This document shows positions 31,781-56,503 of a stretch of 64,000 bases of DNA, in pieces (the stretch's first letter is position 1; each line of letters opens with the position of its first letter). A program made the translations under genes and the position numbers. The notes under the pieces are model-generated. The model did no database searches. It saw only the letters and a list, made by a program, of their open reading frames with translations, and was not told the DNA's origin. The stretch spans positions 553-64,552 of the forward strand of contig JAIXZK010000144.1 of the NCBI GenBank assembly GCA_027489695.1, written 5' to 3'. The DNA comes from Sphingomonadales bacterium (GTDB taxonomy: Bacteria; Pseudomonadota; Alphaproteobacteria; Sphingomonadales; Sphingomonadaceae).

Positions 31781-31783
31781 GCC

Positions 31784-34267: not shown

Positions 34268-34506
34268 TCGTCGCGCGCTTCCGGCAATGGGCGGCGGCAA
34301 GCCAGCGCCAGCAGCGCATTGCGCTTCTGGCCTGTGTGGCGCCGTTCTGGCTGGCGTTCGTCGCTGGCGCCCTGGCGCGCGTGCCGTTGCCACTGTTCAT
34401 CGGCGCCTTTGGCGTCGTGGCGATCGTCATCGCCTACCAGTTTCTCGGCCGGGACTTTCGGCGCGAGGAGCAACCCGAACCGTGGGAGACCTCGAATGAA
34501 CCGTAA
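34264..34506 (+). CDS. Small two-TM membrane protein (80 aa), unknown
   Basis: ATGA overlap with the trbE stop, and 11-nt overlap with trbJ. Sequence: IALLACVAPFWLAFVAGAL...LFIGAFGVVAIVIAY. Confidence 0.45.
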   Translation: MIVARFRQWAAASQRQQRIALLACVAPFWLAFVAGALARVPLPLFIGAFGVVAIVIAYQFLGRDFRREEQPEPWETSNEP

Positions 34507-35197: not shown

Positions 35198-35469
35198 CGA
35201 AGCCCGCCTATCGTCGATTGCCGGCGGCGGCTGCTCTTGCCGCTGCCATGGCTATGGCTTCGTGCAGTCCGCCGGCTCGCAGCACTTCTTACTTCGAGGC
35301 GCACCCCGAGGACGCCGCCAAGGTGGCGGCGAACTGCAAGGCCGGCGAAGCGCGAGGGGCCGAATGCGAATCCGCTGAAACAGCCATCACCAAAATGAAG
35401 TCCGTGCAGACGCAGGCCGACGCAACCCGGATGTCAAAGCGATCGGATCGCGTCGCCAGAAAATGGTGA
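35191..35469 (+). CDS. Small lipoprotein, TrbK-like entry-exclusion candidate
   Basis: Lipobox-like AMASC. It occupies the trbJ-trbL position of TrbK. Confidence 0.5.
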   Translation: MVTKPAYRRLPAAAALAAAMAMASCSPPARSTSYFEAHPEDAAKVAANCKAGEARGAECESAETAITKMKSVQTQADATRMSKRSDRVARKW

Positions 35470-35491
35470 GATACTAACGAGGACCCGTAAG

Positions 35492-36763
35492 ATGCCCGCC
35501 GATTACAACGTCATAGACCTGTTTTTGAAGGCATACCTCGACGCGATCGACAGCGGGTTCGGTCTCATCAACGGCGACGTCACCAGCGTCTTTGCCATTC
35601 TCATCGTGCTGTCGATCTCAGCGACGGCAATCTTCTGGATGCTCGACGAAAACCAGAACATCACCGCGGCATTGATCCGTAAGACGTTGCTGATCGGATT
35701 CTTCGCATGGCTGCTGGCCGATTGGCAGGGCCTAACCAAGACCATCGTACTCGGCTTTGCGCAGCTTGGATTGAAAGCCGGCGGGGCCGGCGCTGGAGTA
35801 GGGGTCGACACATTCCTGAGCTCGCCGTCAGACCTGATTTACATGGGCATGAAGCTCGTCACCGACATGACGATCCAGATCAAGGAACTGAGCGGGCCGG
35901 TAGCCTTCTTCGAGAACATCGGAATCATCCTGATGCTTGCGCTGGCGGCGGTCGGTGTCGTGCTTTCGTTCGTCATCCTCGCTGTCCAGGTCTTTGTGGT
36001 CATCATTGAGTTCCGGCTCGTCACCCTGGCGGCGTTCGTGCTGATCCCGTTCGGGATCGTCCGGCAAACAAGCTTCCTGTCCGAGCGAGCCTTGGGCTAC
36101 GTAGCCTCGTCTGGCCTGAAGGTGTTGACCATTGTCCTCATCGTGTCGGTGGGGTCGAAGACCTTCCAGACGCTGACCCTGTCGGCAACACCCTCGATCG
36201 AAAGCGCCATCTCGATCTTCATCGCCGCAGCTGTTCTCACGATGCTGTCACTTACCGTGCCTTCGATTGCCGCGGCACTGGTGACCGGTGGTCCTCAGCT
36301 TGGCGCAGGTGCGGCACTTGCGGGCACTGCCGGCATCGCCGCAGCCGCGGGCGGCGCCTATCTCGCGGGCCGCGCTGCGCTCGGCGCGCCGGCCGCCGTC
36401 GCGAATCGAGCGGCCGCAGCGCAGGCCGCCGCCGGGGCGGCAACTGGCCAGGCTTCGGGCGCGAGCCTCATGCAGCGCGCCGTCGCCGCCGGCGACACCT
36501 ATGCTTCCGAAATGCAGTCGGGCAGCGCCGCCACCAATGCCTGGCGTCCCGGCGGCGCGCGCTACGTCGCAGCCAACGCCGACAGCGGCCGAGGTGGCGG
36601 TGCGCAGAGCAGCGCGCCATCGCCAGCAACAACCGTTGCCCGCGCCCGTGCCCGCGCTGCCGGCATGACGCTGGTCGGTGGGGCCCAGACAGCCGGCGCG
36701 GCCGCGGCCCGCCAGCGCGGCCCCGGTCTCCACGCCGATTTGAAGGACGATGACGATGCCTGA
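35492..36763 (+). CDS. trbL: TrbL/VirB6
   Basis: Polytopic membrane protein with an Ala/Gly-rich tail, in the expected operon position. Confidence 0.85.
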   Translation: MPADYNVIDLFLKAYLDAIDSGFGLINGDVTSVFAILIVLSISATAIFWMLDENQNITAALIRKTLLIGFFAWLLADWQGLTKTIVLGFAQLGLKAGGAGAGVGVDTFLSSPSDLIYMGMKLVTDMTIQIKELSGPVAFFENIGIILMLALAAVGVVLSFVILAVQVFVVIIEFRLVTLAAFVLIPFGIVRQTSFLSERALGYVASSGLKVLTIVLIVSVGSKTFQTLTLSATPSIESAISIFIAAAVLTMLSLTVPSIAAALVTGGPQLGAGAALAGTAGIAAAAGGAYLAGRAALGAPAAVANRAAAAQAAAGAATGQASGASLMQRAVAAGDTYASEMQSGSAATNAWRPGGARYVAANADSGRGGGAQSSAPSPATTVARARARAAGMTLVGGAQTAGAAAARQRGPGLHADLKDDDDA

Positions 36764-36828
36764 CACTGGACCAATGCTTTGGCCACTTGCCACAGAAACT
36801 GTGTCTCGCCGCGAGGGAGAGAACCGCC

Positions 36829-37515
36829 ATGCTTAGCGCCTTCAAGCGCGGCCGCACCGACTATGGCAGCGTCGCGCCGGTGCTCAGCCCCTATGCCCGC
36901 GCCGCGCAGGACTGGGACGAGCGTATCGGCAGTTCGCGGGTGCAGGCGCGCAACTGGCGGCTAATGGCGTTCGGCGCGCTCGGCCTCGCCGCGCTATCGC
37001 TCGGTGGATTCATCTACACCGCCAACCAGACCCGGATCGCCACCTATGTCGTGCCGGTCAATGAACGCGGGCAGCCCGGCCGTATCGTCATGGCGGGCAA
37101 GGCCTATCAGCCAGCGACGTCGGAAATCGCCTATTTCCTGGCCGACTGGGTCAGCCTTGTGCGCTCGAAGAGCATCGACGGGGTCGTCATCCGGGCCAAC
37201 TGGCAGCGCGCCTACAATTTCATCACCGCGCAGGCCGAGCAGACCCTCAACACGTTCGCTCGCGACAACAATCCCTTCGCCCGGGTGGGTGAAGAAGCGC
37301 GGACGATCGAGGTCGTCACCGTGCTGCCGAGGTCGAACGACACCTATCAGGTTACTTGGCGCGAGACCGTCTACACCAACGGCGTGCCCGGCAAGCCCGA
37401 GACCTGGACGGGGCTGTTCACGATCAGGATTTCGCCGCCGCAGACCGAGCAGGCGCTGCGCGCCAACCCGCTCGGCATCTTCATCACCTCGTTCCAATGG
37501 AGCCGGGAGCTATGA
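36829..37515 (+). CDS. trbF: TrbF/VirB8-like
   Basis: ATG 36829 follows GAGGGAGA. Sequence: YARAAQDWDERIG...single TM... Confidence 0.85.
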   Translation: MLSAFKRGRTDYGSVAPVLSPYARAAQDWDERIGSSRVQARNWRLMAFGALGLAALSLGGFIYTANQTRIATYVVPVNERGQPGRIVMAGKAYQPATSEIAYFLADWVSLVRSKSIDGVVIRANWQRAYNFITAQAEQTLNTFARDNNPFARVGEEARTIEVVTVLPRSNDTYQVTWRETVYTNGVPGKPETWTGLFTIRISPPQTEQALRANPLGIFITSFQWSREL

Positions 37516-38516
37516 GCCAGAACCTGCATTTGCGCCTGACCGCATTCCGAGTCGCAGCGTCGATTGTGCCGACTTTCCTTAGCGCCACCGGGATCGCCCA
37601 AGCCCAGCAAAGCGCCGCAGGCGCCTTGCCGATCGCCAGCGCTACCGCGAGCGCGGCCGGCGGCGCCTATTCCGATCGACTACCGCCGCCGCGACGCCTG
37701 CTACCGATCGATCGCCCGGTTCCGGGTGGCCGGGCCGGCCGCGACACCTCGCTAGAGACCATCGGCCGCGCCAACAGCCTGTCGCGTCAGGCGCCGGCAC
37801 CGGCCGGGTTCATCAACTCGGCGATGTTCTACGACTATATGGCCGGTGCGATCTACGAGGTGCACGCCTCGCCGCGCTTCATCTCGACGATTGCGCTCAG
37901 GCCGGGCGAGAAGCTGATCTCGAAGGCCGCTGGTGACACGGTGCGCTGGGTGATGGGCGAGACCGTGCAGGGTACCGGTACGAGCGCGCAAACCCTCGTG
38001 TTCGTCAAGCCGATCAAGGGCGACTTGCGCACCAACATCGTGCTGACCACCGACCAGCGGACCTACATGCTCGAGGCGATCAGCCACAACAGCGATGCCT
38101 ACACCAGCATCGTCACCTGGAACTATCCGCGCGACCAGCTCGCCGATGCACAGGCGGCGGCAGCTACGGTGGCGAGTCGCGAAGCGCAGACCGTCGCCAC
38201 CAACATCCCGATCGATGCGCTCAACTTCCGCTACGACATCCGCAGCCGTGGCCATCAGAACGGCAAGCCGGCCTGGATGCCCGAGCGCGTGTTCGATGAC
38301 GGCAGCAAGACCTACATCCAGTTTCCGCCGACGCTGGTAACGACGGAGGCGCCGCCGCTGTTCGTGGTCGGTGAGAAGGGCAGGGCCGAACTCGTCAACT
38401 ACCGGGTGCAAGGCAACTACTATGTCGTCGACCGGCTGATCCAGGTCGCCGAGCTTCGCCTCGGCGAGCGCCAGCAGCAGATAGTTCGCATCACCCGCGA
38501 AAGCCGGGGAGGCTGA
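37512..38516 (+). CDS. trbG: TrbG/VirB9-like
   Basis: ATGA overlap with trbF, a signal peptide, and the expected operon position. Confidence 0.85.
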   Translation: MSQNLHLRLTAFRVAASIVPTFLSATGIAQAQQSAAGALPIASATASAAGGAYSDRLPPPRRLLPIDRPVPGGRAGRDTSLETIGRANSLSRQAPAPAGFINSAMFYDYMAGAIYEVHASPRFISTIALRPGEKLISKAAGDTVRWVMGETVQGTGTSAQTLVFVKPIKGDLRTNIVLTTDQRTYMLEAISHNSDAYTSIVTWNYPRDQLADAQAAAATVASREAQTVATNIPIDALNFRYDIRSRGHQNGKPAWMPERVFDDGSKTYIQFPPTLVTTEAPPLFVVGEKGRAELVNYRVQGNYYVVDRLIQVAELRLGERQQQIVRITRESRGG

Positions 38517-38518
38517 CG

Positions 38519-39772
38519 ATGGCGAGCAGTGCTGCAGAAGCCGAATGGTCGCCGGCGCCGAAAACGCCCGCGGCCTCGATCCTGACCACCGAGCGCGCCC
38601 CGGTGACGCGCTACAAGCGTCCGGTCATCCTCGCGATCGTTGCCGCCCTTGCCGGGGTCCTTGCGATCGGCTTCATCGTCGCCTTCGCGCTGAAGCGGCC
38701 CGATGAGGTGAAAACTCGCGATCCCGGCGCCATCCAGATGGCCAAGCCCGACCTGAACGCGCTGCCGACCGGCTATAGCGATCCGCGTGTCCAGCGCCCG
38801 GATCTTGGCGGCCCGGGCACCGCGGCGATGCCGCCCGAAAGCGCGGACGCGCAACTCGCCGGCGGCCCCGCTGCTACTGCCGGCCCGGCCGGAGGCTCGC
38901 CCCCTGCAAATGCCGCGGCGACCGCGGCGTTGCAGCGCCGCGAGGCGGCGCGTGACGCGGCATTGCGACAGGATCTGGCGGCGCGCGCGGCGCCCGTGTT
39001 CGCGACCCAGGCGGGAGGGCAGGGGCCGCAGGCCGGCGATACACAGCTCGCGGTCGACAGTGCGGCACCGCCACCGGCGGCGGCAGGGGTCACTCCCGTC
39101 TCCACAGAAGCCGACCCGAACGGCCAGTCGACCAAGCAGGATTTCATCGCGCGCGTAGGAATCGGCTCGGACTATCTCGGCAACCGCCTGCTGCCGCCGA
39201 TCTCGCCCTATGAGGTCAAGGCCGGCACTATCATCCCGGCAGCACTGGTCACCGCGCTCAACTCCGACCTGCCCGGCGCCGTCGTCGCCAGCGTCACCGA
39301 AGCGGTCTATGACCATGTCACCGGCCGGACCCTGCTGATCCCGCAAGGCGCACGGCTGTTCGGCCGCTACGACAGCCGCATCAGCTACGGCCAGAACCGC
39401 GCCCTCGTCGTCTGGGAGCGGCTGATCTATCCCGATGGCCGCTCGATCAACCTTTCCGGGATGCCCGGCACCGACGCTACCGGCGCCGCCGGCCTCAGTG
39501 ACCGCGTCGACAACCACATCGGCAGCCTGGTCGGCGGCGTGCTGCTGTCGACGGCGATCTCGATCGGCGCGGCGGTCGCCGACGATGCTGCCAACAACAA
39601 TAACAACAACCTCGTGCTGCAGGGCGGGGCAGGGGCAGTGTCGCAGGAAGCGTCGCGGACCGGCCAGCAGATCATCCGCCGCAAGCTCGACCGGCAGCCG
39701 ACCCTGAAGGTCCGGCCGGGCTACCGACTTCGCGTCCTCGTAAACAAGGACATTGTCTTGGCGCCCTATTGA
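38519..39772 (+). CDS. trbI: TrbI/VirB10-like
   Basis: TM segment, Pro/Ala-rich linker, then a conserved C-terminal beta-domain. Confidence 0.85.
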   Translation: MASSAAEAEWSPAPKTPAASILTTERAPVTRYKRPVILAIVAALAGVLAIGFIVAFALKRPDEVKTRDPGAIQMAKPDLNALPTGYSDPRVQRPDLGGPGTAAMPPESADAQLAGGPAATAGPAGGSPPANAAATAALQRREAARDAALRQDLAARAAPVFATQAGGQGPQAGDTQLAVDSAAPPPAAAGVTPVSTEADPNGQSTKQDFIARVGIGSDYLGNRLLPPISPYEVKAGTIIPAALVTALNSDLPGAVVASVTEAVYDHVTGRTLLIPQGARLFGRYDSRISYGQNRALVVWERLIYPDGRSINLSGMPGTDATGAAGLSDRVDNHIGSLVGGVLLSTAISIGAAVADDAANNNNNNLVLQGGAGAVSQEASRTGQQIIRRKLDRQPTLKVRPGYRLRVLVNKDIVLAPY

Positions 39773-39820
39773 GCATTCGATCCCACCCGCCTGGTTCTTT
39801 GAGTCGCGAGGGAGGGGTCG

Positions 39821-40150
39821 ATGTCGGGAAGAACGGTCAGAATGGCTCTGAGCATGCCTGGAAGTCTTCACAAGGAAATGAAGGAACGCGCCGCGCGGAT
39901 AAGTGCCGGTAGCAGCGTTCGAACGTCGCTCTGCGACTGCTACGAGGCCGCGGTACTCGACTTGGTCAAGCGGCTCGAGGCCGGCGAGACCATCGTCTTT
40001 GCCTCGAATCCACATGGCGTCGCCCGCCATATCTCGCTGCGCTTCCTGCCCGAGATCGCCGACCGGATCGACAGCTACGCCCACCATGCCTATCGCTCGA
40101 GCTTCGTCTCGACGTCGGCGCGGCACTATCTCGAGAAAGGCCAGACATGA
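39821..40150 (+). CDS. Hypothetical protein, possibly a tandem ribbon-helix-helix
   Basis: Two strand-helix-turn-helix units: VRMALSMPGSLHKEMKERA..GSSVRTSL and RHISLRFLPEIADRIDSYA..RSSFVSTSARHYL. Confidence 0.45.
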   Translation: MSGRTVRMALSMPGSLHKEMKERAARISAGSSVRTSLCDCYEAAVLDLVKRLEAGETIVFASNPHGVARHISLRFLPEIADRIDSYAHHAYRSSFVSTSARHYLEKGQT

Positions 40151-40449
40151 CCGACAGCACGCCTGGTAATGCGCTCAGCCTGCCGAAAATCGGCGCCGGC
40201 GATCGTCGCAAGTTGCAGCTGGCGATCGACGCCAAGCTGGCAGCCGAGCTCGAGGCCTACGCCCGCGCTTATGAAGAAGCATATGGCGAGCGCGCCGAGG
40301 TCGAGGCGCTGATTCCGCATATGCTGGCCAGGTTCATCGCCGGCGACCGGCACTTCCGCAAATGGAAGACCGGTCGGGCGAAGAATGCCGACGCGCAACC
40401 GCGCGGCGGCAATAGCAACTCAGGCAAGGAGGACGCAGTGACCGTCTAA
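40147..40449 (+). CDS. DUF2274-like protein
   Basis: KLQLAIDAKLAAELEAYARAY. Its position after trbI matches other trb-type elements. Confidence 0.6.
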   Translation: MTDSTPGNALSLPKIGAGDRRKLQLAIDAKLAAELEAYARAYEEAYGERAEVEALIPHMLARFIAGDRHFRKWKTGRAKNADAQPRGGNSNSGKEDAVTV

Positions 40450-40455
40450 AGGAAA

Positions 40456-40480
40456 AGCCCGGCGCGAGGCCGGGCTCTTT
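40456..40480 (+). terminator. Rho-independent terminator ending the trb operon
   Basis: AGCCCGGC-gcgag-GCCGGGCT followed by CTTT. Confidence 0.75.
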
Positions 40481-40782
40481 GATCGGTGATATGGCCTCGC
40501 CGGCAAGCGAGGACAGGGTCCGAAGCAGTTCCTTCCATATAGCCGATTTCAGGTACCGGTTCAACCATGCGCAGCTCGCGCCACGGCGGGATTCTACCCG
40601 GTCACGGTCTCCATATCTGGAGGACGGCTGTGGGCGTATGTTCGATTGGCGAGGCTGTTGCAGGCATTGGGAGCCGGTGCGGCCGCAGGAGCGGCGCGCC
40701 GGTGCGGCGTGGCAGTCGTGAAGCCGGAAGTTTCGAGGCGGGGTTCTGGCGGCGGCCGCAAGAGGGCGAGTTTGCGCGGGCG

Positions 40783-41409
40783 ATGGCGGGAGCCAGGGCG
40801 CTCGAGAGAGAGACGCGCGGGCCCGGGCGACCGCAAGGCGCCATCGGTCCGGTGGCGCTCGAGCTGCTCGCGCAGCTCTATCGCCTGGGCCAGCGCTTCA
40901 AGGGGCGGATCGAGCCGTCTCTCGACTTCCTGATGCGAGCCATCAAGCGTTCGCGCAGCGCGGTGGTGCGGGCGCTGAAGCAGCTGCGGGATGCCGGTTT
41001 CATCGAATGGGCGCGGCGGTTCGAGCCGGTCGACCGCGAGGGTCCCGGGCCACGTTATCGGCAGATATCGAATGCCTATCGGTTGCGCCTCCCGACAGTG
41101 ATCCGGCGCCTGCTCGGCAGGCGGGCCGAGCCCGCTCCGCTGCCCGACGATGTCGCGCAGCACGTTGCCGAGCGCCATGCGGAAAGCGAGCGCATGCTTG
41201 CCGGCCTGTCACCACGGGCGTTTGCACACGCTGTCGCGGACGGGCCGCTGGCCAAGAGCCTGGCGGCGCTCGGAGAAGCCATCGCGGCGCGCGATGAGCG
41301 CGAGTTGTCCGCGCGGTCTGAACCGCGACATCGATTGATTCAATGTGCATCCAGCAACAGGTTGGCTGACGGAGCCAACCCGTCGGCCCGAAAAGGAGGC
41401 CCGTCATGA
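40783..41409 (+). CDS. Winged-helix DNA-binding protein
   Basis: RSRSAVVRALKQLRDAGFIEW. The start is uncertain, since the ORF is open from 40567. Confidence 0.5.
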   Translation: MAGARALERETRGPGRPQGAIGPVALELLAQLYRLGQRFKGRIEPSLDFLMRAIKRSRSAVVRALKQLRDAGFIEWARRFEPVDREGPGPRYRQISNAYRLRLPTVIRRLLGRRAEPAPLPDDVAQHVAERHAESERMLAGLSPRAFAHAVADGPLAKSLAALGEAIAARDERELSARSEPRHRLIQCASSNRLADGANPSARKGGPS

Positions 41410-42347
41410 CCAGTATCGAGATCGCGGCGCTGAAAGCCCGCCACGACTTGAGCGCCATCATCGGCCGCGACGTGCGGCTGAAGCGTTCGAGCCATGAGCT
41501 CGTCGGCCTGTGTCCTTTCCATGAGGAGAAGACACCGAGCTTCCGCGTCAACGACACCAAGGGGCTGTTCCACTGCTTTGGCTGCGGTGCCAGCGGCGAC
41601 ATCATCGACTATGTCCGCTGGCGGCACGGCCTCGAGTTCGTCGATGCCCTGCATTGGCTTGAAGGCGGCGTCACCGCTACCGCCGATGCCCCGGCACGCG
41701 AACGTCGGCGGCAGGACGAGGATCTGGCGCGGGTCGAGGCCATCGCGGAGGCCCAGGCCCAGTGGGCGGCCGCTAGGTCGATCAAGGGCACGCCGGCCGA
41801 GCTTTATCTGCGCTCGCGTGGCATCGTCGAACCGTCACCACCGTCGATCCGGTTCGGCCGCGTGCCACTTTGGCGTGCTCCGAACGGCGCCCCAGGACCG
41901 CGATTGCCGGCACTGATCGCCGCTTGCGAAGACGTCTCCGGCACTGTCGTGGGCGTCCAGCGCATCTTCCTCACCAAGGATGGCAACAAGGCGGCGATGA
42001 AGAACCCCAAGCTTAGCCTTGGCCAGGTGCGCGGGTGCGCATTGCGGCTTGGGCCGGTCGCACCAGAGGTCATGCTTTGCGAAGGGCCCGAGGACGGTCT
42101 GACACTGCGCCAGCGGTTCACGGGCGCCAGCGTCTGGGTATCGCTCGGGACCGGCAACCTGCCTTTTGTCGAGCTGCCAGACGCCGTCGAGTCCGTCATC
42201 ATTGCCGCCGACAACAATCTGGCTGGCTATGCCGCCGCCGAAGCTGCTGGCCATGCCTTTGCCGAACAGGGCAGGGGGGTTGCCGTTGTATTCCCCGATC
42301 CGGCCTACAAAGACTGGAACGACGAGCTGATGGGCAAACGCATCTGA
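41406..42347 (+). CDS. DNA primase (CHC2 zinc finger plus Toprim)
   Basis: CPFHEEKTPSFRVNDTKGLFHCFGCGASGD, and Toprim motifs LCEGPEDGL / AADNN. Confidence 0.85.
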   Translation: MTSIEIAALKARHDLSAIIGRDVRLKRSSHELVGLCPFHEEKTPSFRVNDTKGLFHCFGCGASGDIIDYVRWRHGLEFVDALHWLEGGVTATADAPARERRRQDEDLARVEAIAEAQAQWAAARSIKGTPAELYLRSRGIVEPSPPSIRFGRVPLWRAPNGAPGPRLPALIAACEDVSGTVVGVQRIFLTKDGNKAAMKNPKLSLGQVRGCALRLGPVAPEVMLCEGPEDGLTLRQRFTGASVWVSLGTGNLPFVELPDAVESVIIAADNNLAGYAAAEAAGHAFAEQGRGVAVVFPDPAYKDWNDELMGKRI

Positions 42348-43761: not shown

Positions 43762-44004
43762 GTGGTCTGTTCTCATTGTAAGATGACCAGTCACCAGCAA
43801 TCTCGCCTTGCCGACCACCTCGATGCCGCCCTGGCAGCAATGCCAGCGGCTACGGCTGCCCGGCTCACTAATCCCGATCAGGCTCAACGTCGAAGTGCGA
43901 TCGCGATCATGGCCCAAACCTTGGCAGCGCGGCTCGAAGGCGATGACGTTCATTCCTCAGGCCCCGAAGCCACCGCTTTGCCGCGTCTGCCGATCGAACT
44001 GTAA
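43762..44004 (+). CDS. Hypothetical protein (80 aa)
   Basis: Open reading frame only. Confidence 0.25.
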   Translation: MVCSHCKMTSHQQSRLADHLDAALAAMPAATAARLTNPDQAQRRSAIAIMAQTLAARLEGDDVHSSGPEATALPRLPIEL

Positions 44005-44073
44005 TGATGGCACCTTGCCAGCAACCTTGCTCTACGGTAGATGGCGAGCAGACACAGCTAACCCGTTGATATT

Positions 44074-44101
44074 ATTTAACATAAGATATATTATCAAGAT
44101 T
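44074..44101. other. dif-like XerC/XerD recombination site (11-6-11)
   Basis: The reverse complement AATCTTGATAA-TATATC-TTATGTTAAAT compares with E. coli dif GGTGCGCATAA-TGTATA-TTATGTTAAAT. The XerD arm matches 11/11. The XerC arm shares the inner ATAA. Confidence 0.6.
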
Positions 44102-44124: not shown

Positions 44125-44565
44125 CTAGCGCTGGGCAAAGGCTGACATTTTGCCAGCGCCAAACGCTACGACAGTGTATCTGTCGGGTGCGCGCCCGGGA
44201 ACTTCCATTCCGAGCGAGCCGGCCGGCATACCCGGAACCGCCAAGCCTGTTACGCCTGCCGGCCGCTTGGCGAGTACGCGCTTCATATCGGCGATCGGCA
44301 CGTGACCTTCGAAGGCGACTCCGTCGATGAGGGCGGTGTGGCACGACGCAAGGGCGGGATGCATACCGAGGCGCTTGTGAAGGCTGGCTCGGTTTGCATC
44401 GTCGATGATCTTGACGGCCTGACCAAATGCCTTGGCGACCTGTGCTGCCCAGGCTTCGCAGCAGCCACAGCCGGGATCGCGATGCATGACGATATCGCCT
44501 GCCGCTAGTACGGGCGCGGCCACAAGGGCAAGGGCCAGTGCCAGCAAGTATTTACGCATGAACAA
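44125..44565 (-). CDS. DUF411 (CopG-type) periplasmic metal-binding protein
   Basis: Signal peptide, then PGCGCCEAW. Confidence 0.8.
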   Translation of the reverse strand: MFMRKYLLALALALVAAPVLAAGDIVMHRDPGCGCCEAWAAQVAKAFGQAVKIIDDANRASLHKRLGMHPALASCHTALIDGVAFEGHVPIADMKRVLAKRPAGVTGLAVPGMPAGSLGMEVPGRAPDRYTVVAFGAGKMSAFAQR

Positions 44566-44592
44566 TAGCCTTTCTTCTGAATTGGGACATCA

Positions 44593-45321
44593 TCACGCGA
44601 CGGTGCGACGGCGGAAAAGCCCCCGTTTGATCGGCCATCGTATGACCAGAAGCACAGTCCCCGCCAGCCCCAGCACGAGACCACCTACAGCGAATGCCAG
44701 CAACCACCAGGTGTTGAAGTTGTCGCGCTCGGTCCAGTCCATGATATGCAGGCCCCAGAAAAAGTCGAACAGCCGCCAATTTGCGGTCCGCACCGCAGCG
44801 ATCTGCCCGGTGTCGGCAGCGATGAAGACGCTGGTGTTGTCGGGGTCGGCAAAGGCAACACGCCAGGCCGGTAACGGGCCCCGATATTCGGGGCTGGCGG
44901 ATGTGACCTTGCTCGTCATCGGCGCCGCAACCTTGGCACCGATCCAGGCCTTTTCGGCGATCGATGCCGCCAAACGGGCATCGACGGGCGGTAGCGGCGC
45001 GCCTGTCGTCGCATCGAACATCAGGATGCGATTGCCGCGCGTGACTTCGGCCACCGCCCGGCCGTACAACATGCGCAGTGTCACCCGGTCAGCACCGCTC
45101 CCGTCGAGATAGGTGGAGGGATCGGCGAAAGCGATCCCGGCGGGAAGCGCCTCGATGCGCTTGCGGTCGACAAGATGATCGCCATGGATTTCGTCGATTG
45201 GCCAGAAACTCATCAGCGCGCCGCTGGCAAACCAGATCAACAGTTGGGCGCCGATGATCAGCGCCAACCATTTGTGCAGCCTGCTGGCGCCGAGGTGAAG
45301 GCGGTGGCGTCGTGAACTCAT
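44593..45321 (-). CDS. PepSY-associated TM / PepSY-domain membrane protein
   Basis: LHKWLALIIGAQLLIWFASG N-terminus and a TM segment at each end. Confidence 0.55.
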   Translation of the reverse strand: MSSRRHRLHLGASRLHKWLALIIGAQLLIWFASGALMSFWPIDEIHGDHLVDRKRIEALPAGIAFADPSTYLDGSGADRVTLRMLYGRAVAEVTRGNRILMFDATTGAPLPPVDARLAASIAEKAWIGAKVAAPMTSKVTSASPEYRGPLPAWRVAFADPDNTSVFIAADTGQIAAVRTANWRLFDFFWGLHIMDWTERDNFNTWWLLAFAVGGLVLGLAGTVLLVIRWPIKRGLFRRRTVA

Positions 45322-45330
45322 GGTCCCGTC

Positions 45331-46380
45331 CTAAAACCAGAACCGGATGCCGGCAACGAAACTGGTTCCGCTGGTTCGATCACCGGCGTCACGGGCAAAG
45401 CGCGCCGTCTCGCCGACTTTGCCGGCCCATTCGACACCGATATAGGGCGCAAATTCGCGGGCGATTTCGTAGCGCAGCCGCAGGCCTAGCTCGATATCGG
45501 TGAGGCCCGCACCCACGCCGATCTCGGGGATCGACTTCGCGGAGGCTTCGATCTCGGCGCGCGGCTGAAGGATCAACCGTTGCGTGATGCGCTGGTCGTA
45601 AAAGCCCTCAATGCGACCGCGCAACTCGCCCTTGTTCGACAGGAACAGCGCGCCGGCAGCCTTGAACCAATAGGGTGCCAGCCCTTCGATTCCGACTGTC
45701 GCATAGGTCCGCTGCGGTTCTGGCCGGATGTCGTGGCGCACCCCTGCCTGCAGGTTCCACCATGGACCGATGGCACGTGAATAGAGCGCCTGGACCTCGG
45801 CCTTTTCAAGCGGCCCGCGCACATCGCCCTCGCCTTCGGTCTTCACGACAAAACGGTTGATGTCGCCGCCGAACCAGCCTTCGCCTTCCCAGCGATAACC
45901 GTCGGTGCCGGCACGGGCCTGATATTCGGCGAGGTTGAACAGGATCATCGAGCCGGTGAAGCCGCCATGCTCGCGGCGTAGTGCTGCTCGCGAAGGGGCG
46001 ACGGCAGCCGCGCCCCAAACGGCATCGGCGGCATGATCGGTCGGCGGCGCCGGGGCGGGGGCGTTGCCGATGGTATCACCGGTCGGCGGCAGTGCCATAT
46101 TGTGGCCGGCGTGCGGGTCGGCGGCCGGTTGGGCAGCACCCATATCATGCCCCGCGTGGCGGTCGCTGGCTGGCTTGGCCGCACCCATGTCGCGGCCGGC
46201 GTCCTGGTCGGGCGCTGCGGGCATCGAGTGCCCGGCATGTGGGTCGGCGGTGGCGGGGACTGTCGCCATCGGCATAGTGTGACCCGCGTGCGGGTCGGCC
46301 GCCGGCGCAGCGGTCTGCGCCAAGGCGCCGCCCGGAACGAGCGCCAGCGCGACAAGCGCCCCGATAGTGGCGCGGATCAT
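45331..46380 (-). CDS. copB: Copper resistance protein B (outer membrane)
   Basis: Repeated DPHAGH / DRHAGHDM motifs, then a beta-barrel ending IRFWF. Confidence 0.85.
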   Translation of the reverse strand: MIRATIGALVALALVPGGALAQTAAPAADPHAGHTMPMATVPATADPHAGHSMPAAPDQDAGRDMGAAKPASDRHAGHDMGAAQPAADPHAGHNMALPPTGDTIGNAPAPAPPTDHAADAVWGAAAVAPSRAALRREHGGFTGSMILFNLAEYQARAGTDGYRWEGEGWFGGDINRFVVKTEGEGDVRGPLEKAEVQALYSRAIGPWWNLQAGVRHDIRPEPQRTYATVGIEGLAPYWFKAAGALFLSNKGELRGRIEGFYDQRITQRLILQPRAEIEASAKSIPEIGVGAGLTDIELGLRLRYEIAREFAPYIGVEWAGKVGETARFARDAGDRTSGTSFVAGIRFWF

Positions 46381-48134
46381 GCCGCATCCTCGTCATGGCG
46401 CACCGTGACAACGCGGAACATGCCGGCGTGCATGTGGAGCATCATGTGGCAATGAAACGCCCAGTCGCCGAGCGCATCGGCAGTGAGATCGAACGACACC
46501 TTGCCGCCCGGCAGGACGTTGACCGTGTGCTTGACCGGCCGGTTGCCCTTCTCACCCATCACCACCTCGAAGAAGTGGCCATGGAGATGGATCGGGTGGG
46601 GCATCATCGTGTCATTGATCAGATTGACCCGAACGCGCTCGTTATGGCGGAAAGCCAGAGGCTCGGCACCTTCGCTGAACTTCACGCCATCGAACGACCA
46701 CATGTAGCGTTCCATGTTGGCGGTCAGATGGATGTCGATCTCGCGCGACGGGTCGCGCTTGTCGGGATTGGCGTCGAGCGAGCGAAGCTGGCTGTAAGTC
46801 AGCACGCGGTGTGGTTCGTTTTCGAGACCGGTCGGGCGCTCGGCGGTGCGGTCCATCGGCATCGAGGATAGCATAGCCACCCCCGGCCCCATCTTGACCT
46901 GAGGCGCCACCGACGGGTCGAGCATCTTCATCGACCCCATGTCGTGGCTCATGCCCGGCATCGCGCCGTGATCCATGCCTGGCATGTTGCTATGGTCCAT
47001 CCCGGCCATGGCACCGCCGCTCATGTCCATGTCGCCCATGCCCATGTCCTTCATGGTGAGCAACGGGCGCTTTCGCAGCGGCGGCACATAGGCAACCATT
47101 CCCATCCGCGGCGCCAGGGTGGCGCGCACCAGTCCTGACCGGTCGATGCCTTCGGCGATGAAGCCATAGGCCTTGTCCTCGGTTGGGTGGACGACGACGT
47201 CATAGGTTTCGGCGACGCCGATCTGGAACTCGTCGGTCTCCACCGGCTGCACATTGTTGCCGTCTGCCGCGACGACGGTCATCGCCAAGCCCGGGATACG
47301 CACGTTAAAGTTGGTCATCGCCGACGCGTTGATGATGCGCAGCCGGACCTTTTCACCCGGCGCGAACAGCCCTGTCCAGTTCTCCGCCGGCCCATGGCCA
47401 TTGACGAGATAGGTGTAAATCGCGCCGGTCGCATCGGAAATGTCGGTCGGGTCCATCCGCATCGCGCCCCACATCCGGCGGTCGGCGGCCGACTGGTCCT
47501 TGCCGGCAATCAGTCCGACGAGCGTCTGCTTCTGGAAATTGAAGTTGCCGCCGTTCTGCTTCAGCCGCGTGTATATCTTGTGCGGGTGCATGAAGCTCCA
47601 GTCGCTGAGCACCAGCACATGCTCGCGGTCCGATTGCACCCGGTCGGCCCCCGTCGGATCGATTACGATCGAACCGAAATGCCCCATCGCTTCCTGCAGG
47701 CCCGAATGGCTGTGATACCAATAGGTGCCGGCCTGGCGGATCGGGAATTCATAAACGAAGGTTTCGCCAGGCTTGATGCCGGGAAAGCTGATCCCCGGAA
47801 CGCCGTCATATTGAAACGGCAGCAACAGCCCGTGCCAATGGATCGACGTGTCCTCGGACAGCGTGTTGGTCACCGACAGGCGGACGTTCTGGCCTTCCTT
47901 CAGCCTGATCAGCGGCCCGGGCACGGTGCCGTTGATGGCAATGGCATGGCCCGACCGGCCGCCGACACTGTGCATTGCGTGGCCGATGCTGAGCTTGATG
48001 TCTTCGCCGGACAAAACATCGCTGCCGCTCGCAAGGCCGCCAGTGCCACTGCGCGCCCAACCCGGCACAGCCATCGCACCTGTGACTAACGAGGCGGCCC
48101 GCAGAAAGCCGCGGCGAGAGGTCGGTAGGATCAT
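46377..48134 (-). CDS. copA: Multicopper oxidase CopA
   Basis: Tat signal SRRGFLR (ATG 48134), IHWHG, HCHMMLHMHAGM, and a Met-rich MGMGDMDMSGGAMAGMDHSNMPGMDHGAMPGM. Confidence 0.9.
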   Translation of the reverse strand: MILPTSRRGFLRAASLVTGAMAVPGWARSGTGGLASGSDVLSGEDIKLSIGHAMHSVGGRSGHAIAINGTVPGPLIRLKEGQNVRLSVTNTLSEDTSIHWHGLLLPFQYDGVPGISFPGIKPGETFVYEFPIRQAGTYWYHSHSGLQEAMGHFGSIVIDPTGADRVQSDREHVLVLSDWSFMHPHKIYTRLKQNGGNFNFQKQTLVGLIAGKDQSAADRRMWGAMRMDPTDISDATGAIYTYLVNGHGPAENWTGLFAPGEKVRLRIINASAMTNFNVRIPGLAMTVVAADGNNVQPVETDEFQIGVAETYDVVVHPTEDKAYGFIAEGIDRSGLVRATLAPRMGMVAYVPPLRKRPLLTMKDMGMGDMDMSGGAMAGMDHSNMPGMDHGAMPGMSHDMGSMKMLDPSVAPQVKMGPGVAMLSSMPMDRTAERPTGLENEPHRVLTYSQLRSLDANPDKRDPSREIDIHLTANMERYMWSFDGVKFSEGAEPLAFRHNERVRVNLINDTMMPHPIHLHGHFFEVVMGEKGNRPVKHTVNVLPGGKVSFDLTADALGDWAFHCHMMLHMHAGMFRVVTVRHDEDAA

Positions 48135-48239
48135 ATCTGTCCCTGGAAATTCAGCAAAGCACAGCAAGGCTCGCATTGAGATACGCACGGTTTTGAATCG
48201 CCCCTCAAGGTAAGCCTGCGGCATTATCGCTTTAGAGGT

Positions 48240-48809
48240 CTAACCGCTCAGCGCCTTGCGGGCGCGATAGATCCGGACTTCGACAGCCTTCTCGCTAATC
48301 CCGAGTACCGAGGCAGCTTCCGCCTGCGAAAGACCGTCCACCGCGGTCAGGATGAGAGGCTCTTTGAGGTTCGCCGGAAGCGACGCAATCGCCTTGGTCA
48401 CGCGCGCCAGCGCGCGGGCATCATCGATCGCTGCCTCGCCCGTAACCGTCGTGTCGACAATCTCGCTTGCCGCGTCCAACGGTAGCGCAAACCGAAACAG
48501 GCGCCGGACGGCTCGCCGACGCCCCCAATCGCGGCACTTGTTCAGGGCGATGCGGCTGATCCAATAGCGAAACGGCCGGCTGCCGTCATAGCGTCCGATC
48601 GATGCAAAGGCCGCGACAAACGTCTCTTGCACAACATCGAGGGCCTCATCAGCGTCGCCAACATGGCTGCGAACAAGACGGAACACCGGCTCGCGGTAGC
48701 GCTGCATCAACTCGCCATACGCCGCCTGGCGACCGGTCAGCGCCAGCGCGGCGAGCTCGGCATCGGTGCAGCCGGTGAGCGGCATCGTCGGAGCACTCTG
48801 GCCAGTCAC
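48240..48809 (-). CDS. ECF (sigma-70 family) sigma factor
   Basis: Region 2 VVQETFVAAF and region 4 LSQAEAASVLGISEKAVEVRIYRARKAL. Confidence 0.85.
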   Translation of the reverse strand: MTGQSAPTMPLTGCTDAELAALALTGRQAAYGELMQRYREPVFRLVRSHVGDADEALDVVQETFVAAFASIGRYDGSRPFRYWISRIALNKCRDWGRRRAVRRLFRFALPLDAASEIVDTTVTGEAAIDDARALARVTKAIASLPANLKEPLILTAVDGLSQAEAASVLGISEKAVEVRIYRARKALSG

Positions 48810-49246
48810 TCCGTCGGGGCTGTCAGCGCCTTGACCGCCGCCTCGTCGAACTTTCGCGCCTGATCGGGCCGTAAGACACCGCGCAATCGAAACACATGCT
48901 GGAGCGTCTCCTTCTGGAGCTCGCCCATCACCTCGTGGGAACGGTCAACCGCTGTCTGCACCCCCGGGCCATAGCCATGTTCCGCCGTGATCGCTTCAGC
49001 CAGGCGCGCGTTGTCGGATCGCATTTGCTGCTCGAGGGCGCGCTTCCTGACCGCAAACTGCTGTTCGAGCCCCTCTATCTGCGCCCGTTGCGCGGCATCG
49101 AGTTCGAGCTTGTCGTGGAGAATGGCGTGAAGCTCGGTTTCAGGTGGGGAAAGCCGCGTAACCAGCGCGCGGCCGACAAACACGCCGCCGAGCGCTGCGA
49201 CGAACGCTACCAGCGCGACAATCGCGAACCGCCGGAAATTGTTCAT
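48806..49246 (-). CDS. Periplasmic heavy-metal sensor (Spy/CpxP-like, LTxxQ repeats)
   Basis: TM anchor, then LELDAAQRAQI and LRPDQARKF. Confidence 0.62.
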   Translation of the reverse strand: MNNFRRFAIVALVAFVAALGGVFVGRALVTRLSPPETELHAILHDKLELDAAQRAQIEGLEQQFAVRKRALEQQMRSDNARLAEAITAEHGYGPGVQTAVDRSHEVMGELQKETLQHVFRLRGVLRPDQARKFDEAAVKALTAPTE

Positions 49247-49521
49247 CCGATATTCGCCAGCAGTGTCGAGGGCGCAAGGTTGGCCCCGGCTGCAAATGGC
49301 GAGGTCTGCGCTGCCTCGGCCGAACCGCCGGGCAGTATCGCCGCGCCAATACCAATTCCCATTGCGAGAACCGCGGCAAGACTGAGCGCCGGTCCGGTGG
49401 TCAATGCCGATGCGCTGCGCTCAGCAACGATTTGCATCATCACTTCGCCTTCAAGCGACGCCAACCTTGTTGGCACCGGCAGGGTGCGTAGCTGCTGCAA
49501 CGCCCGGTCAAGGTCGTCCAT
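49243..49521 (-). CDS. Putative anti-sigma factor / membrane protein
   Basis: First gene of the ECF operon, with a single TM. ATG 49521 chosen. Confidence 0.42.
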   Translation of the reverse strand: MDDLDRALQQLRTLPVPTRLASLEGEVMMQIVAERSASALTTGPALSLAAVLAMGIGIGAAILPGGSAEAAQTSPFAAGANLAPSTLLANIG

Positions 49522-49643
49522 AAAAGGTTCCTTCTCAAATCCAGTAGACACTACGCACGCCCCGCGCTCACCCCTCAACAAGATTCCTTGAGGGGCACGG
49601 TGACGGCCTGCGTATATCTCCCCAGTCCATCAAGGAGCCATCA

Positions 49644-50033
49644 ATGACCTTCAACTTTCGCGCCGTTCTCGTTGCTGCCATGATTGCTGCGCTCGGCACC
49701 GGCACCGCTGCACTTGCACACACCAAGCTCGTATCATCGACTCCGGCCGCCAATGCCACCGTCGACAAGCCCGGCAAGATCGTCCTGGTTTTCAACGAAA
49801 AGCTGATGGCCAAGTTTGCCGGCGCCGAACTGACAATGACCGGCATGCCCGGCATGGCCGACCATCAGCCGATGAAGATGACCGGCTTCACAACGGCGCT
49901 GGGTGCCGATGGCAAGACGCTGACGCTGCTGATGAAGCGCGCGCTTCCCAGCGGCAGCTATGAGCTCAAATGGTTTGCCGCTGGCGCCGATGCCCATCGC
50001 ATGGAAGGCAGCTTTCCGTTCACCGTGAAATAG
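49644..50033 (+). CDS. copC: CopC periplasmic copper-binding protein
   Basis: The signal peptide ends ALA-H, so His is the mature N-terminus. Met-rich loop TMTGMPGMADHQPMKM. Confidence 0.85.
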   Translation: MTFNFRAVLVAAMIAALGTGTAALAHTKLVSSTPAANATVDKPGKIVLVFNEKLMAKFAGAELTMTGMPGMADHQPMKMTGFTTALGADGKTLTLLMKRALPSGSYELKWFAAGADAHRMEGSFPFTVK

Positions 50034-50034
50034 C

Positions 50035-50937
50035 ATGCTCGCGATCGCCATCAGGTTTGCGCTCTATGCCAATCTGATGGTGCTGTTCGGGTGGCCGCTG
50101 TTTGCGTTGTACGGGAGCCGTGGCAAAGCCAGCGGACCATCACCAAGCGAGTTGCTTTCGCTGACGCTGGTCGCGGCGTTGCTATCGGTTGCTGGCATGC
50201 TTGCAATGACCGCAGCGATTTCCGGGGTCGCGATCATGGAGGTCGATCGCCCCTCGATCGCGGCGATGGTGTTCGAAACTCCGATGGGATTGGCGTGGCA
50301 GGTTCGAATGCTGGCGCTTGCAGCCATCGCAGCGCTGGCTCTCGCGCGCAATCCTGTCGCCCGGGTTGCAATGGTGATCTTTGCCGGCGCGGCATTGGGG
50401 TCGCTGGCCTGGACCGGCCACGGTGCGGCCGGGGAGGCGACGACGGGCTGGGTTCAGCTTGTCGCTGACATTGTCCACCTGCTTGCCGCAGGTGCCTGGG
50501 TAGGCGCGCTGGTAGCATTGGGCTTGATGGTAGCGCGCGATGCGTCGCGCCTGACATCGGCTGACTTCATCTCGATGCACCATGCACTCGATGGCTTCTC
50601 GAAAGCCGGGACCGTTTTCGTCGCGCTGCTGATCATAACCGGCTCCATCAACACATGGATTCTTGTCGGTCCAGCGGGGATCGGCCTGGTTGGCAGCGAT
50701 CCGTACGTCCAGTTGCTGGCGATCAAGCTGGCGCTGTTCGTGGCCATGCTCTGGCTGGCGGCAATGAACCGCTTCCGCCTCACCCCGGCGCTGTTGCGCG
50801 ATCTGGACGCTGGCGCTGTGCCGTCAGGAGCCCTCCGTGCGCTGCACCGGTCGATCGCTATCGAAGCCGGATTTGCTGCTTCGGTACTGGCAATCGTTGC
50901 CTGGCTAGGAACGCTGGTGCCGCCAGCATCGTTATAG
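50035..50937 (+). CDS. copD: CopD inner-membrane copper resistance protein
   Basis: Polytopic, immediately after copC. Confidence 0.85.
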   Translation: MLAIAIRFALYANLMVLFGWPLFALYGSRGKASGPSPSELLSLTLVAALLSVAGMLAMTAAISGVAIMEVDRPSIAAMVFETPMGLAWQVRMLALAAIAALALARNPVARVAMVIFAGAALGSLAWTGHGAAGEATTGWVQLVADIVHLLAAGAWVGALVALGLMVARDASRLTSADFISMHHALDGFSKAGTVFVALLIITGSINTWILVGPAGIGLVGSDPYVQLLAIKLALFVAMLWLAAMNRFRLTPALLRDLDAGAVPSGALRALHRSIAIEAGFAASVLAIVAWLGTLVPPASL

Positions 50938-51022
50938 GCTGTGTGCCTGACCTGTTTTGTTCTGAGGGCTGATCGTGCGCTTTGCGTATCACCCACTAGC
51001 AGACACACGGAAAGGTGTTCCA

Positions 51023-51517
51023 ATGCACAAATATATTACGCTCGCAGCATTTTTGCTCGTCGCAGCCCCAATCGCCGCGCAAACGTCGCCGCCGCCTGTT
51101 GATCATAGCAAGATGCAGGGCATGAACCACGATGCGATGGCCAAACCGGGTGCATCGACGCCCGCCATGGACCACAGCAAGATGCAGACGATGGACCATG
51201 GCAAGATGGAAGGCATGGACCATTCCAAGATGGGCGGAATGGGCGAGATGATGAAGAATACGTCTGCCAACCCCTACGCCGAGGTCGGCATGGCGATGCA
51301 CCACAAGATGATGGTCGTCGGCGCCGACGCGTCGGAAACCTGGATCCGCCAGATGATCGAGCATCATCGCGGTGCGATTGCGATGTCGAAGATCGCCGTC
51401 ACCCAAGCTGCCGACAAGGAAGTTAGCTCGATGGCGCAGAAGGTCGTCACGATGCAGCAGAAGGAAGTCGCAAGCCTCCAGTCGTGGCTGAAGCGAAACG
51501 GCAAGAAGGCGCAGTAA
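51023..51517 (+). CDS. DUF305 protein with a His/Met-rich N-terminal repeat
   Basis: Signal peptide, four repeats of (M)DHSKM, then WIRQMIEHHRGAI. Confidence 0.75.
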   Translation: MHKYITLAAFLLVAAPIAAQTSPPPVDHSKMQGMNHDAMAKPGASTPAMDHSKMQTMDHGKMEGMDHSKMGGMGEMMKNTSANPYAEVGMAMHHKMMVVGADASETWIRQMIEHHRGAIAMSKIAVTQAADKEVSSMAQKVVTMQQKEVASLQSWLKRNGKKAQ

Positions 51518-51618
51518 TGGCCATGGCACATCGGGCTCGTGCACACGGGTCCGATGCCGCCAAAGCTGACTGCTTGAGGGCAGCGACACTTGGAGGAACG
51601 GCGAAAGTAACGGGCGGC

Positions 51619-52014
51619 TTACCCGGCGCTCCCGGCGAGTTCCTCGATGATCGGACAGTCCGGACGATTGTCGCCGCTGCACGTCGCAACAAGGTGCTCG
51701 AGCGAACGCCGCATCGTATGCAACGCCCTTTCGCGCTCCCGCAGGTCGGCGATCCTGGCCGTCGCCAAAGCTTTGACGTCGGCGCTCGCCCGCGTCTGGT
51801 CGCTCCAGAGCGCCAGAAGCTCGCCAATCTCGTCGATCGGAAAGCCAAGGTCACGGGCCCTGGCGATGAACCGCAATCGATGCACGTCATTGGTCGAATA
51901 ATCCCGGTACTGCGAATCCCTTCGCAGCGCCTTCGGTGTCAGCCCGATCTTTTCATAATGGCGCACCATCCGCGGGCTGAGACCTGCCGCGGCCGCTGCC
52001 TCACCGATGTTCAT
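51619..52014 (-). CDS. cueR: MerR-family Cu(I)-responsive regulator (CueR/HmrR)
   Basis: MNIGEAAAAAGLSPRMVRHYEKIGL and a C-terminal CSGDNRPDC. Confidence 0.85.
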   Translation of the reverse strand: MNIGEAAAAAGLSPRMVRHYEKIGLTPKALRRDSQYRDYSTNDVHRLRFIARARDLGFPIDEIGELLALWSDQTRASADVKALATARIADLRERERALHTMRRSLEHLVATCSGDNRPDCPIIEELAGSAG

Positions 52015-52024
52015 GAGATACCTC

Positions 52025-52055
52025 TTGACCTTGACACGATGTCAACCCCGACATT
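52025..52055 (+). promoter_or_regulatory. MerR-type promoter with 19-bp spacer and internal dyad
   Basis: TTGACC, then 19 nt, then GACATT. The spacer contains TTGACA-cga-TGTCAA (52031-52045). Confidence 0.5.
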
Positions 52056-52089
52056 GCGCCGCGACGCTTGATTTACAAGGACGCAGGCC

Positions 52090-54947: not shown

Positions 54948-55067
54948 CCTCAAAATTTTGAAGCGTTGCACGTCTGCCAACTTGGCCGGCGCCCAAACGA
55001 CGATGCGCCACCCCCTCGCGGCAGGGGCGGCGTTACGGAACGTGGTGCCGCGACAAGGAGTATCGAG

Positions 55068-55433: not shown

Positions 55434-55557
55434 GCCTGCTCGTCGATTGTCACAGTTCGCGCCGCCTCGGTTCAGCGCCGAGGCGGCGCGAATGCCGGGC
55501 CAACTTCTGCCTCGCGCCTCGTTCAAGCCGGCGCGATCAAAGTCAGGAATTCATAAG

Positions 55558-56474: not shown

Positions 56475-56503
56475 ACATTCCAATCGATTTATCGGAGACG
56501 ATT

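Follow-up and report, generated by a model that had tools for sequence, protein, structure and literature searches.

The 28-bp sequence lying between the conjugative backbone and the metal-resistance island of this DNA raises the question of what a Xer recombination site would be doing at such a boundary. An earlier note on the 64,000-nucleotide stretch analysed here (the window) had described it as a dif-like XerC/XerD site at the backbone/island junction and had offered three readings: a dimer-resolution site on which polar GGGCAGGG words converge, a cer/psi-like plasmid site, or one end of a Xer-mobilised island. The arms, the uniqueness and the conservation of the site all support the core of this description. 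Among the three readings we favour the first, based on the word polarity in the window, in the complete plasmid pCADAB1 and in the flanks of megaplasmid sites. The site is likely to be the dif of a conjugative sphingomonad plasmid, at which dimers would be resolved by the host XerC/XerD and FtsK would be directed by GGGCAGGG. The positions of the features discussed below are collected in Table 1.

Table 1. Features of the window and of related loci. Positions are those of the window unless a locus label is given.
Feature	Position	Strand	Remarks
28-bp dif-type Xer recombination site	44074..44101	-	Sequence, family alignment, published dif predictions
XerC arm AATCTTGATAA	44101-44091	-	
Centre TATATC	44090-44085	-	
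XerD arm TTATGTTAAAT	44084-44074	-	
16-bp extension CTAACCCGTTGATATT	44058..44073		Adjoins XerD arm on outer side; carried by window and by L099-L103, L105, L106, L108, L109
Small conserved ORF (74-80 aa) after SRAP gene	43762..44004	+	Last segment homologous to related backbones
Metal-resistance island	44125..64000, on to at least 73.8 kb (contig coordinates)		XerC side of site
parA	18544-19791	+	
parB, SopB_HTH domain	19754-20773	+	
repA, RPA family PF10134	20770-21999	+	
Serine resolvase gene	1..563	-	Runs past left window end
Left replichore	302..19850	-	14 GGGCAGGG on -, 1 on +; directed away from parAB-repA
Right replichore of backbone	22805..42276	+	12 GGGCAGGG on +, 0 on -; all toward site
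GGGCAGGG count	1-20.5 kb		1 on +, 14 on -
GGGCAGGG count	22-44.07 kb		12 on +, 0 on -
GGGCAGGG count, island	44.1-73.9 kb		0 on +, 2 on -
GGGnAGGG doublets	12817-12829, 12869-12882, 14336-14348, 17257-17269, 19838-19850, 23896-23908		
ISNCY-annotated elements	L099 ~6050-7560; L101 ~6050-7560; L104 ~20045 onwards; L108, L109 right of sites		

Read on the minus strand, the site is AATCTTGATAA-TATATC-TTATGTTAAAT, with two 11-bp arms and a centre of exactly 6 bp making up the 28 bp; the top strand reads ATTTAACATAA (44074-44084), GATATA (44085-44090) and TTATCAAGATT (44091-44101). When checked on the reverse complement, the XerD arm is identical to that of E. coli dif at 11 of 11 positions, and the 6-bp spacer and the inner ATAA of the XerC arm are both in place, all as described earlier. 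The site forms an AT-rich patch within 64% GC DNA. The short AT-rich gap of the earlier description corresponds to 400 bp between convergent genes, with the SRAP gene and a small conserved ORF on the left and a DUF411 gene on the right, the stop of which, at 44125, is 23 bp from the site.

Chance falls far short of explaining a site of this kind. With up to one mismatch allowed, the window would be expected to hold 0.09 copies of the XerD arm and holds one; with up to three allowed, 0.04 copies of the ATAA-N6-XerD arm pattern would be expected, and the single copy present is free of mismatches. The search for further or partner copies that the earlier note had proposed was carried over the window and the next 9.9 kb of the 75,378-bp freshwater MAG contig (GCA_027484345.1, JAIXTD010000216.1). 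Neither ATAA-N6-TTAT cores nor either arm at up to two mismatches revealed a second Xer site in 73.9 kb of this 75.4-kb contig; the scan ran from 0.3 kb after the start of the contig to 1.2 kb before its end, and single-copy status refers to this part. Two other places were noted. A XerC-arm-like word at 49575-49585 is weak, belongs to a GC-rich palindrome and is not a Xer site. The trb genes are preceded by an AT-rich stretch (31092-31119) with an ATAA-N6-TAAT core, TCGTATTATAA-ACATTA-TAATGTTGAGG; both of its arms match poorly and it is probably a promoter region rather than a Xer site.

Measured against E. coli, the XerC arm looks weak; it is not degenerate, however, since published dif predictions identify it as an arm of the Sphingomonadales type. 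Chromosomal dif predictions for this order were taken from Carnoy & Roten (2009) and Kono et al. (2011). The predicted sites are AGGATTGATAA-TAATCA-TTATGTAAATA in Novosphingobium aromaticivorans (PMC2731167) and, read in register from the supplement of PMC3025954, ..GTCTGATAA-TATATA-TTATGTTAAAT in Zymomonas mobilis and ..GAATGATAA-TATATA-TTATGTAAAAT in Erythrobacter litoralis. The inner end of the XerC arm in these sites is (T)TGATAA, compared with CGCATAA in E. coli, and AATCTTGATAA fits this type through its inner TTGATAA. The site in the window further resembles the predicted chromosomal sites in its XerD arm, TTATGT(T/A)AAAT in the predictions and identical to ours in Z. mobilis, and in the AT-only type of centre, TATATA/TAATCA being set beside TATATC here. 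It differs from them in its location on a plasmid, in the outer bases of the XerC arm and in one central base. Both arms thus match the host-lineage binding consensus given by the published Sphingomonadales predictions and 12 further sphingomonad-type sites. With regard to the host dif, for which the earlier note had sought a comparison, the predictions published for the order show no clear difference from the site, which is compatible with them. In the source runs themselves, a 48-bp query for a chromosomal-type dif matched plasmid-type sites only.

The PLSDB query that returned the sphingomonad plasmids described below also returned an E. coli IncF plasmid site, GGTGCGCATAA-TCTATC-TTATGTTAAAT, one of the dif-like sites of IncF plasmids, of which rfsF of F is an example. 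Like the site in the window, it is plasmid-borne, 28 bp long and has the identical XerD arm together with a XerC arm of the host type, which in this case is that of E. coli. Plasmid sites therefore track the host lineage. Roseobacter plasmids of about 69 kb were also found to carry a site with the same XerD arm and another XerC arm, ATTTAACATAA-GATAGA-TTAAGAGGATT, as in Phaeobacter piscinae pP13_f (69 kb; L117, about 3001-3030), and 42 Phaeobacter records in PLSDB match the query. Sites of the dif type may be common on mid-sized alphaproteobacterial plasmids.

In the comparison of 44055-44125 with PLSDB by blastn, sphingomonad plasmids aligned over about 45-50 bp, and seven of these were read: S. 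yanoikuyae pF2, Sphingomonas ERG5 pCADAB1, Novosphingobium ES2-1 p3, Croceicoccus p2, Novosphingobium THN1 pTHN (1.16 Mb), a Sphingomonas paeninsulae replicon (850 kb) and a Polymorphobacter replicon (842 kb). These plasmids and megaplasmids, 125 kb to 1.16 Mb in size, have unrelated backbones (MOBF/F-type). Metagenome contigs were scanned for the pattern as well, which yielded five further examples on GC-rich contigs; none of the eight sites found by that scan has the flanks of the window. In the family alignment, with at least 12 independent replicons, the XerD arm never changes, the 6-bp centre and the flanks vary, and the XerC arm is nnnnTTGATAA with a single exception, CCGATAA. No conservation was found beyond the XerC arm among 10-13 family members. 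In the four MOBF plasmids pF2, pCADAB1, ES2-1 p3 and Croceicoccus p2 the site occupies a fixed backbone position, after ssb, and variable cargo is found on the XerC side.

On the outer side of the XerD arm the family has a conserved feature of its own. The 16-bp extension, with the consensus cTaA..caTTGaTatt, is common to ten sites of the plasmid type whose backbones are unrelated. The sites of L112 and L113, the arms of which do not differ from those of the window, are without it; one of the two is on a 716-kb contig. Within the extension, TTGATA repeats the inner XerC arm in inverted orientation and also fits a -35-like hexamer. We considered whether the extension could be part of a second, overlapping Xer site and rejected this, as the would-be XerD arm matches by eye at 5 of 11 positions.

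Insertion elements provide a separate line of evidence. Transposase genes annotated as ISNCY, with similar ends, lie 6-9 bp from the XerC arm in three PLSDB replicons, and in two metagenome contigs an ISNCY-like end sequence of the same kind abuts the XerC arm. The IS1202 family, which was earlier filed under ISNCY, inserts about 5 bp from the XerC arms of dif and pdif sites (PMC10132070; bioRxiv 2022.12.17.520857). We take the elements at the sphingomonad sites as independent biological evidence that these are real Xer sites. Elements resembling the IS1202 family at five sphingomonad sites would also carry dif-targeting beyond Acinetobacter.

The earlier note had remarked on polar words in the backbone, and the orientation of GGGCAGGG bears this out: the words are directed from the parAB-repA region at about 21 kb toward the site. 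GGGCAGGG, a KOPS variant inferred for Azospirillum in published work, shows the strongest skew of all octamers in each of the two backbone arms, and its general form GGGnAGGG occurs 36 times in the window compared with 8.9 expected. If the origin is placed near 21 kb and dif at 44.09 kb, the orientation fits for 28 of the 29 words (binomial p = 1e-7). It is at parA-parB-repA, about 21 kb, that the polarity reverses, and the reversal is not attributable to gene orientation because the genes on either side of it, including those at 14.9-20 kb, are on the plus strand. The best interval for the right-hand switch is 42.3-54.1 kb, which contains the site; the interval is no finer than this, the island being nearly free of the words. 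GGGnAGGG often occurs as overlapping doublets such as GGGCAGGGCAGGG (Table 1), and its density of about 0.8 per kb in the 32-kb backbone is far above that of the cargo regions.

The same arrangement is observed in other replicons. In pCADAB1 (complete, 138 kb), which has a single site at 38.5 kb, 19 of 20 GGGCAGGG words diverge at repA/parA (73.5-75.3 kb) and converge on the site. Within the 20-kb flanks of the site they also converge in pTHN (3+|3-), in the Polymorphobacter plasmid (5+|3-) and, with one exception, in the S. paeninsulae plasmid. If the replicon studied here is about 75 kb in size, its site is not opposite the origin, the two arms being about 23 and 52 kb; pCADAB1 is as asymmetric (36.5 and 101.8 kb), with a cargo-rich arm that is poor in GGGCAGGG. 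Published work has established that dif need not coincide with the terminus.

These observations also bear on whether the site could be a relic without function or a chance AT-rich spacer between convergent genes. Sigma-70-like hexamers do match the region of the site on both strands, and this is compatible with such a spacer. Against it, the 15 specified bases are exact in 64% GC DNA, where 0.04 occurrences would be expected even at three mismatches; the XerD arm does not vary within the family whereas centre and flanks do; and the polarity of the words converges on the site in several replicons. No terminator-like structure was found at the site and its folding is no better than that of shuffled sequence, which rules out a terminator or structural element as well. 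We regard a relic or chance origin as highly improbable.

The replicon to which the site belongs has the character of a plasmid. To the left of the site are the genes for a resolvase, a methylase/helicase pair, DarT/DarG, a ubiquitin-like conjugation operon and a large ParB-like protein, together with parA, parB and repA (RPA) and the genes for a MobA/MobL relaxase, TraG and TrbB to TrbI, a primase, an M48 peptidase and the SRAP peptidase. The parA-parB-repA segment is inferred to be the origin region since the polarity of GGGCAGGG diverges there. The closest relatives of individual genes are from sphingomonads (Polymorphobacter, strain AAP81b and Sandarakinorhabdus). When 42.0-46.5 kb was compared with PLSDB by megablast, a weak copB match was all that emerged, so that there is no close plasmid on record. 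In pDE3 and pDS4, the primase relatives in PLSDB, the context differs and the corresponding position is without a site. In about 1.2 Mb from 80 loci retrieved with the primase (mostly chromosomal dnaG), used as negative-control DNA, no ATAA-N6-XerD site was present apart from one in L019, which is an AT-rich chance match. The serine resolvase that the earlier note had mentioned is encoded at the left window end and is possibly a second, perhaps redundant, multimer-resolution system. The 73.9 kb contain no gene for a tyrosine recombinase, and any activity of the site must therefore come from the host XerCD.

Several of the left-hand genes are of interest in themselves. DarT (an ssDNA thymidine ADP-ribosyltransferase) and the macro-domain protein DarG form a toxin-antitoxin/defence pair at 6055-7742. 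An E1(ThiF)-JAB fusion, a multiubiquitin protein and a prokaryotic E2 (Prok-E2_E) are encoded in one operon at 8147-10524, which has the appearance of a ubiquitin-like conjugation system of the defence type. The segment 1654-6002 encodes an N6/N4 DNA methylase and, after it, a ResIII/DEAD helicase, and probably represents restriction-modification of a type III-like kind or a related defence module; its low GC content (57-58%) and few KOPS suggest that it is cargo. At 14958-17195 a 742-aa ORF with a ParB_N domain on the plus strand lies opposite a 734-aa ORF on the minus strand without a Pfam match; domain support exists for the plus-strand ORF only, and mirrored ORFs are typical of high-GC DNA.

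The gonococcal genetic island sits at dif, and there is thus a precedent for a type IV secretion element beside such a site. A contig of chromosomal origin, in which a conjugative element had integrated beside the dif of the chromosome in the manner of that island, is nevertheless extremely unlikely here. Housekeeping genes of a chromosome were not observed on the contig, which has parA, parB and repA (RPA). Furthermore, the GGGCAGGG words diverge at repA and those in the left 20 kb point away from the site, an arrangement incompatible with the terminus region of a chromosome.

A second type of plasmid site, represented by cer and psi, depends on about 180 bp of accessory sequence and on PepA/ArgR/ArcA-like proteins and acts independently of FtsK. 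Such sites, like the one studied here, are found on plasmids and use the host XerCD, and the short conserved 16-bp extension beside the core might be thought to correspond to an accessory element. The extension is just 16 bp long, however, and is on the XerD side, whereas the accessory sequences of cer and psi flank the XerC arm. On that side no sequence of about 180 bp is shared, the flanks of the family members being unrelated to one another. The centre here is 6 bp (6-8 bp in cer/psi sites), the strong polarity of GGGCAGGG from the origin to the site fits control by FtsK, and the accessory-dependent sites of Enterobacteriaceae belong to small multicopy plasmids. The 6-bp centre and the lack of conservation in the XerC-side flank led us to set aside this second reading of the earlier note, which we judge very unlikely. 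The site is probably a plasmid dif of the chromosome type, guided by FtsK.

The junction at which the site lies is well defined. Related backbones (L091 and L093) are homologous as far as the stop codon of the small ORF at 44004, which leaves about 70 bp to the site; on the right, copper and other metal-resistance genes extend from 44125 to at least 73.8 kb, in agreement with the boundary described in the earlier note. The island encodes DUF411, PepSY_TM, CopB, CopA, ECF sigma/anti-sigma, CopCD, a P-type ATPase, RND/OEP proteins and a two-component system. The SRAP gene is common to L091, L093 and L094, and the small ORF to L091 and L093. In none of these three more distant backbone relatives does a site follow the SRAP module within the 10-20 kb available, and the site is therefore not a universal feature of this module. 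In the Logan assemblies X1 (6.7-kb contig), X3 (826 bp) and X8 (151 bp) the junction is spanned without difference; as these come from three independent runs in three studies, it is not an artefact of MAG assembly. Unrelated metagenomes also retain the junction with the site: beside the identical X8, three further assemblies (X4, X5 and X7) have it at about 90-95% identity, with the arms intact and the centres changed. The site is thus retained at the junction in related elements, and the lack of conservation there that the earlier note had named as counting against it is not observed.

The position of the island directly against the site bears on the third reading, taken here to mean that an island of at least 30 kb entered the dif of the plasmid by the action of XerCD in the manner of IMEX or dif modules. 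The present site would then be a hybrid, its XerC arm having arrived with the island and its XerD arm being that of the plasmid, and this reading is compatible with a function in dimer resolution. The backbone homology that stops about 70 bp to the left and the island that begins 23 bp to the right are as this reading would have them, and the XerC side is variable and cargo-bearing in the MOBF plasmids also. In run X2 the depth of the island is about 10 through 64 kb, and the island is joined to two left sides with depths of 5.4 and 4.0, the second of which reads ..CGCATTAACCCATTGATATT-ATTAAACATAA-GATACA-TTATCAAGATT. The two contexts agree fully from 44090 to the right; on the left they have differences at 44089 and 44077 and, beyond about 44059, share no related sequence, which places the breakpoint at the boundary of the centre and the XerC arm. 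In X4, X6 and the 145-kb X9 contig the XerC arm and a DUF411 homologue follow unrelated DNA without a XerD arm. In X6, moreover, a related backbone with the XerD arm, the centre and TTATCAA runs into different DNA. These patterns, although seen in short contigs, are what recombination within the core would be expected to leave.

The X2 contigs also show a 44-bp gap at 49508-49551. As the depth is unchanged on either side, this break is a coverage gap and not a branch. It adjoins a GC-rich palindrome, CCCCTCAAGGAATCTTGTTGAGGGG (49565-49595), in the divergent cop promoter region, which may be the operator of a regulator.

Other observations argue against an island mobilised by Xer recombination. 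Neither a second dif-like site nor a degenerate one is present in the 73.9 kb, which include 29.8 kb of the island, the far end of which is outside the readable contig. No integrase or Xer-activating factor was identified. The XerC arm is of the ordinary lineage type, without a signature of foreign origin, and old divergence around a conserved AT-rich 28-mer could also give such breakpoints in the short Logan contigs. With one site in 73.9 kb, the two-ended module of the earlier note is not borne out, and we consider it rather unlikely that the island entered in this way. Nevertheless, public metagenome assemblies, in which backbone and island are joined to other partners and the break falls inside the 28 bp, suggest that the site has acted as a recombination seam for cargo too.

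In the mechanism that we propose for a dif of this plasmid, the chromosomally encoded XerC and XerD of the host would bind the two 11-bp arms. When sister copies of the plasmid had recombined into a dimer, the septum translocase FtsK, taking its direction from the polar GGGCAGGG words that lead away from the origin region at parAB-repA, would bring the two dif copies together and activate XerD, and recombination across the 6-bp centre would restore the monomers. The site would also mark the end of the conserved backbone, with cargo having accumulated on its XerC side. The site may in addition serve to exchange or capture cargo, a plausible role but one to which we give limited credence. More speculatively, and with considerable doubt on our part, the 16-bp extension and the 28-bp core may together form a distinct dif cassette of sphingomonad plasmids, which would resolve dimers and at the same time serve as a docking and exchange point for large cargo blocks between replicons via the host XerCD, the block here being the metal-resistance island of at least 30 kb; the extension would then be an accessory element not described before, for example the site for a factor that licenses recombination between replicons.

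Plasmid and chromid dif sites at a KOPS inversion are already established, and in this respect the site is well supported and fairly ordinary. A conjugative plasmid of about 75 kb with a dense chromosome-like layout is mildly unusual. If the proposed interpretation is correct, dimer resolution by XerCD/dif under the guidance of dense KOPS extends beyond megaplasmids and chromids to a mid-sized self-transmissible plasmid, in an order known for its degradative and metal-resistance plasmids; our literature search found no paper that combines dif, XerC and Sphingomonas. The origin, the dif site and the backbone/cargo boundary would provide landmarks for the annotation of such plasmids, and dif could represent a seam for the exchange of resistance islands between replicons in freshwater and wastewater communities.

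Comparison with known Xer systems places the site among those of large secondary replicons. The pdif sites of Acinetobacter resemble it in being plasmid Xer sites with breaks in identity inside the site and with targeting by the IS1202 family beside the XerC arm; pdif modules, however, are flanked by oppositely oriented pairs and occur many times per plasmid, in contrast to the one site in 73.9 kb here. IMEX such as the CTX phage and the gonococcal genetic island share the placement of cargo directly against dif and the breakpoints within the core, but have dif at one end and, as a direct repeat, a second and often degenerate site at the other; no such second site was found within 29.8 kb of the island. 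Close counterparts are the FtsK-dependent dif/xrs sites of R27 and other enterobacterial megaplasmids, the secondary replicons of Azospirillum, pSymA/pSymB and Vibrio Chr2. The replicon studied here differs from these in appearing much smaller (a contig of 75 kb and a backbone of about 32 kb; in a survey of enterobacteria, plasmids of 30-100 kb were usually without xrs), in being a self-transmissible Trb/MOBQ plasmid and in having the 16-bp extension on the XerD side, which is unreported in those studies. As R27 has a self-encoded recombinase (a Y-recombinase) beside its xrs, so a serine resolvase accompanies the site here. Like the present site, the FtsK-dependent sites are 28 bp long with a 6-bp centre, are free of accessory sequence on the XerC side and are present once per replicon at the inversion of KOPS (GGGnAGGG; GGGCAGGG here); they rely on the chromosomal XerCD, as the present one probably does.
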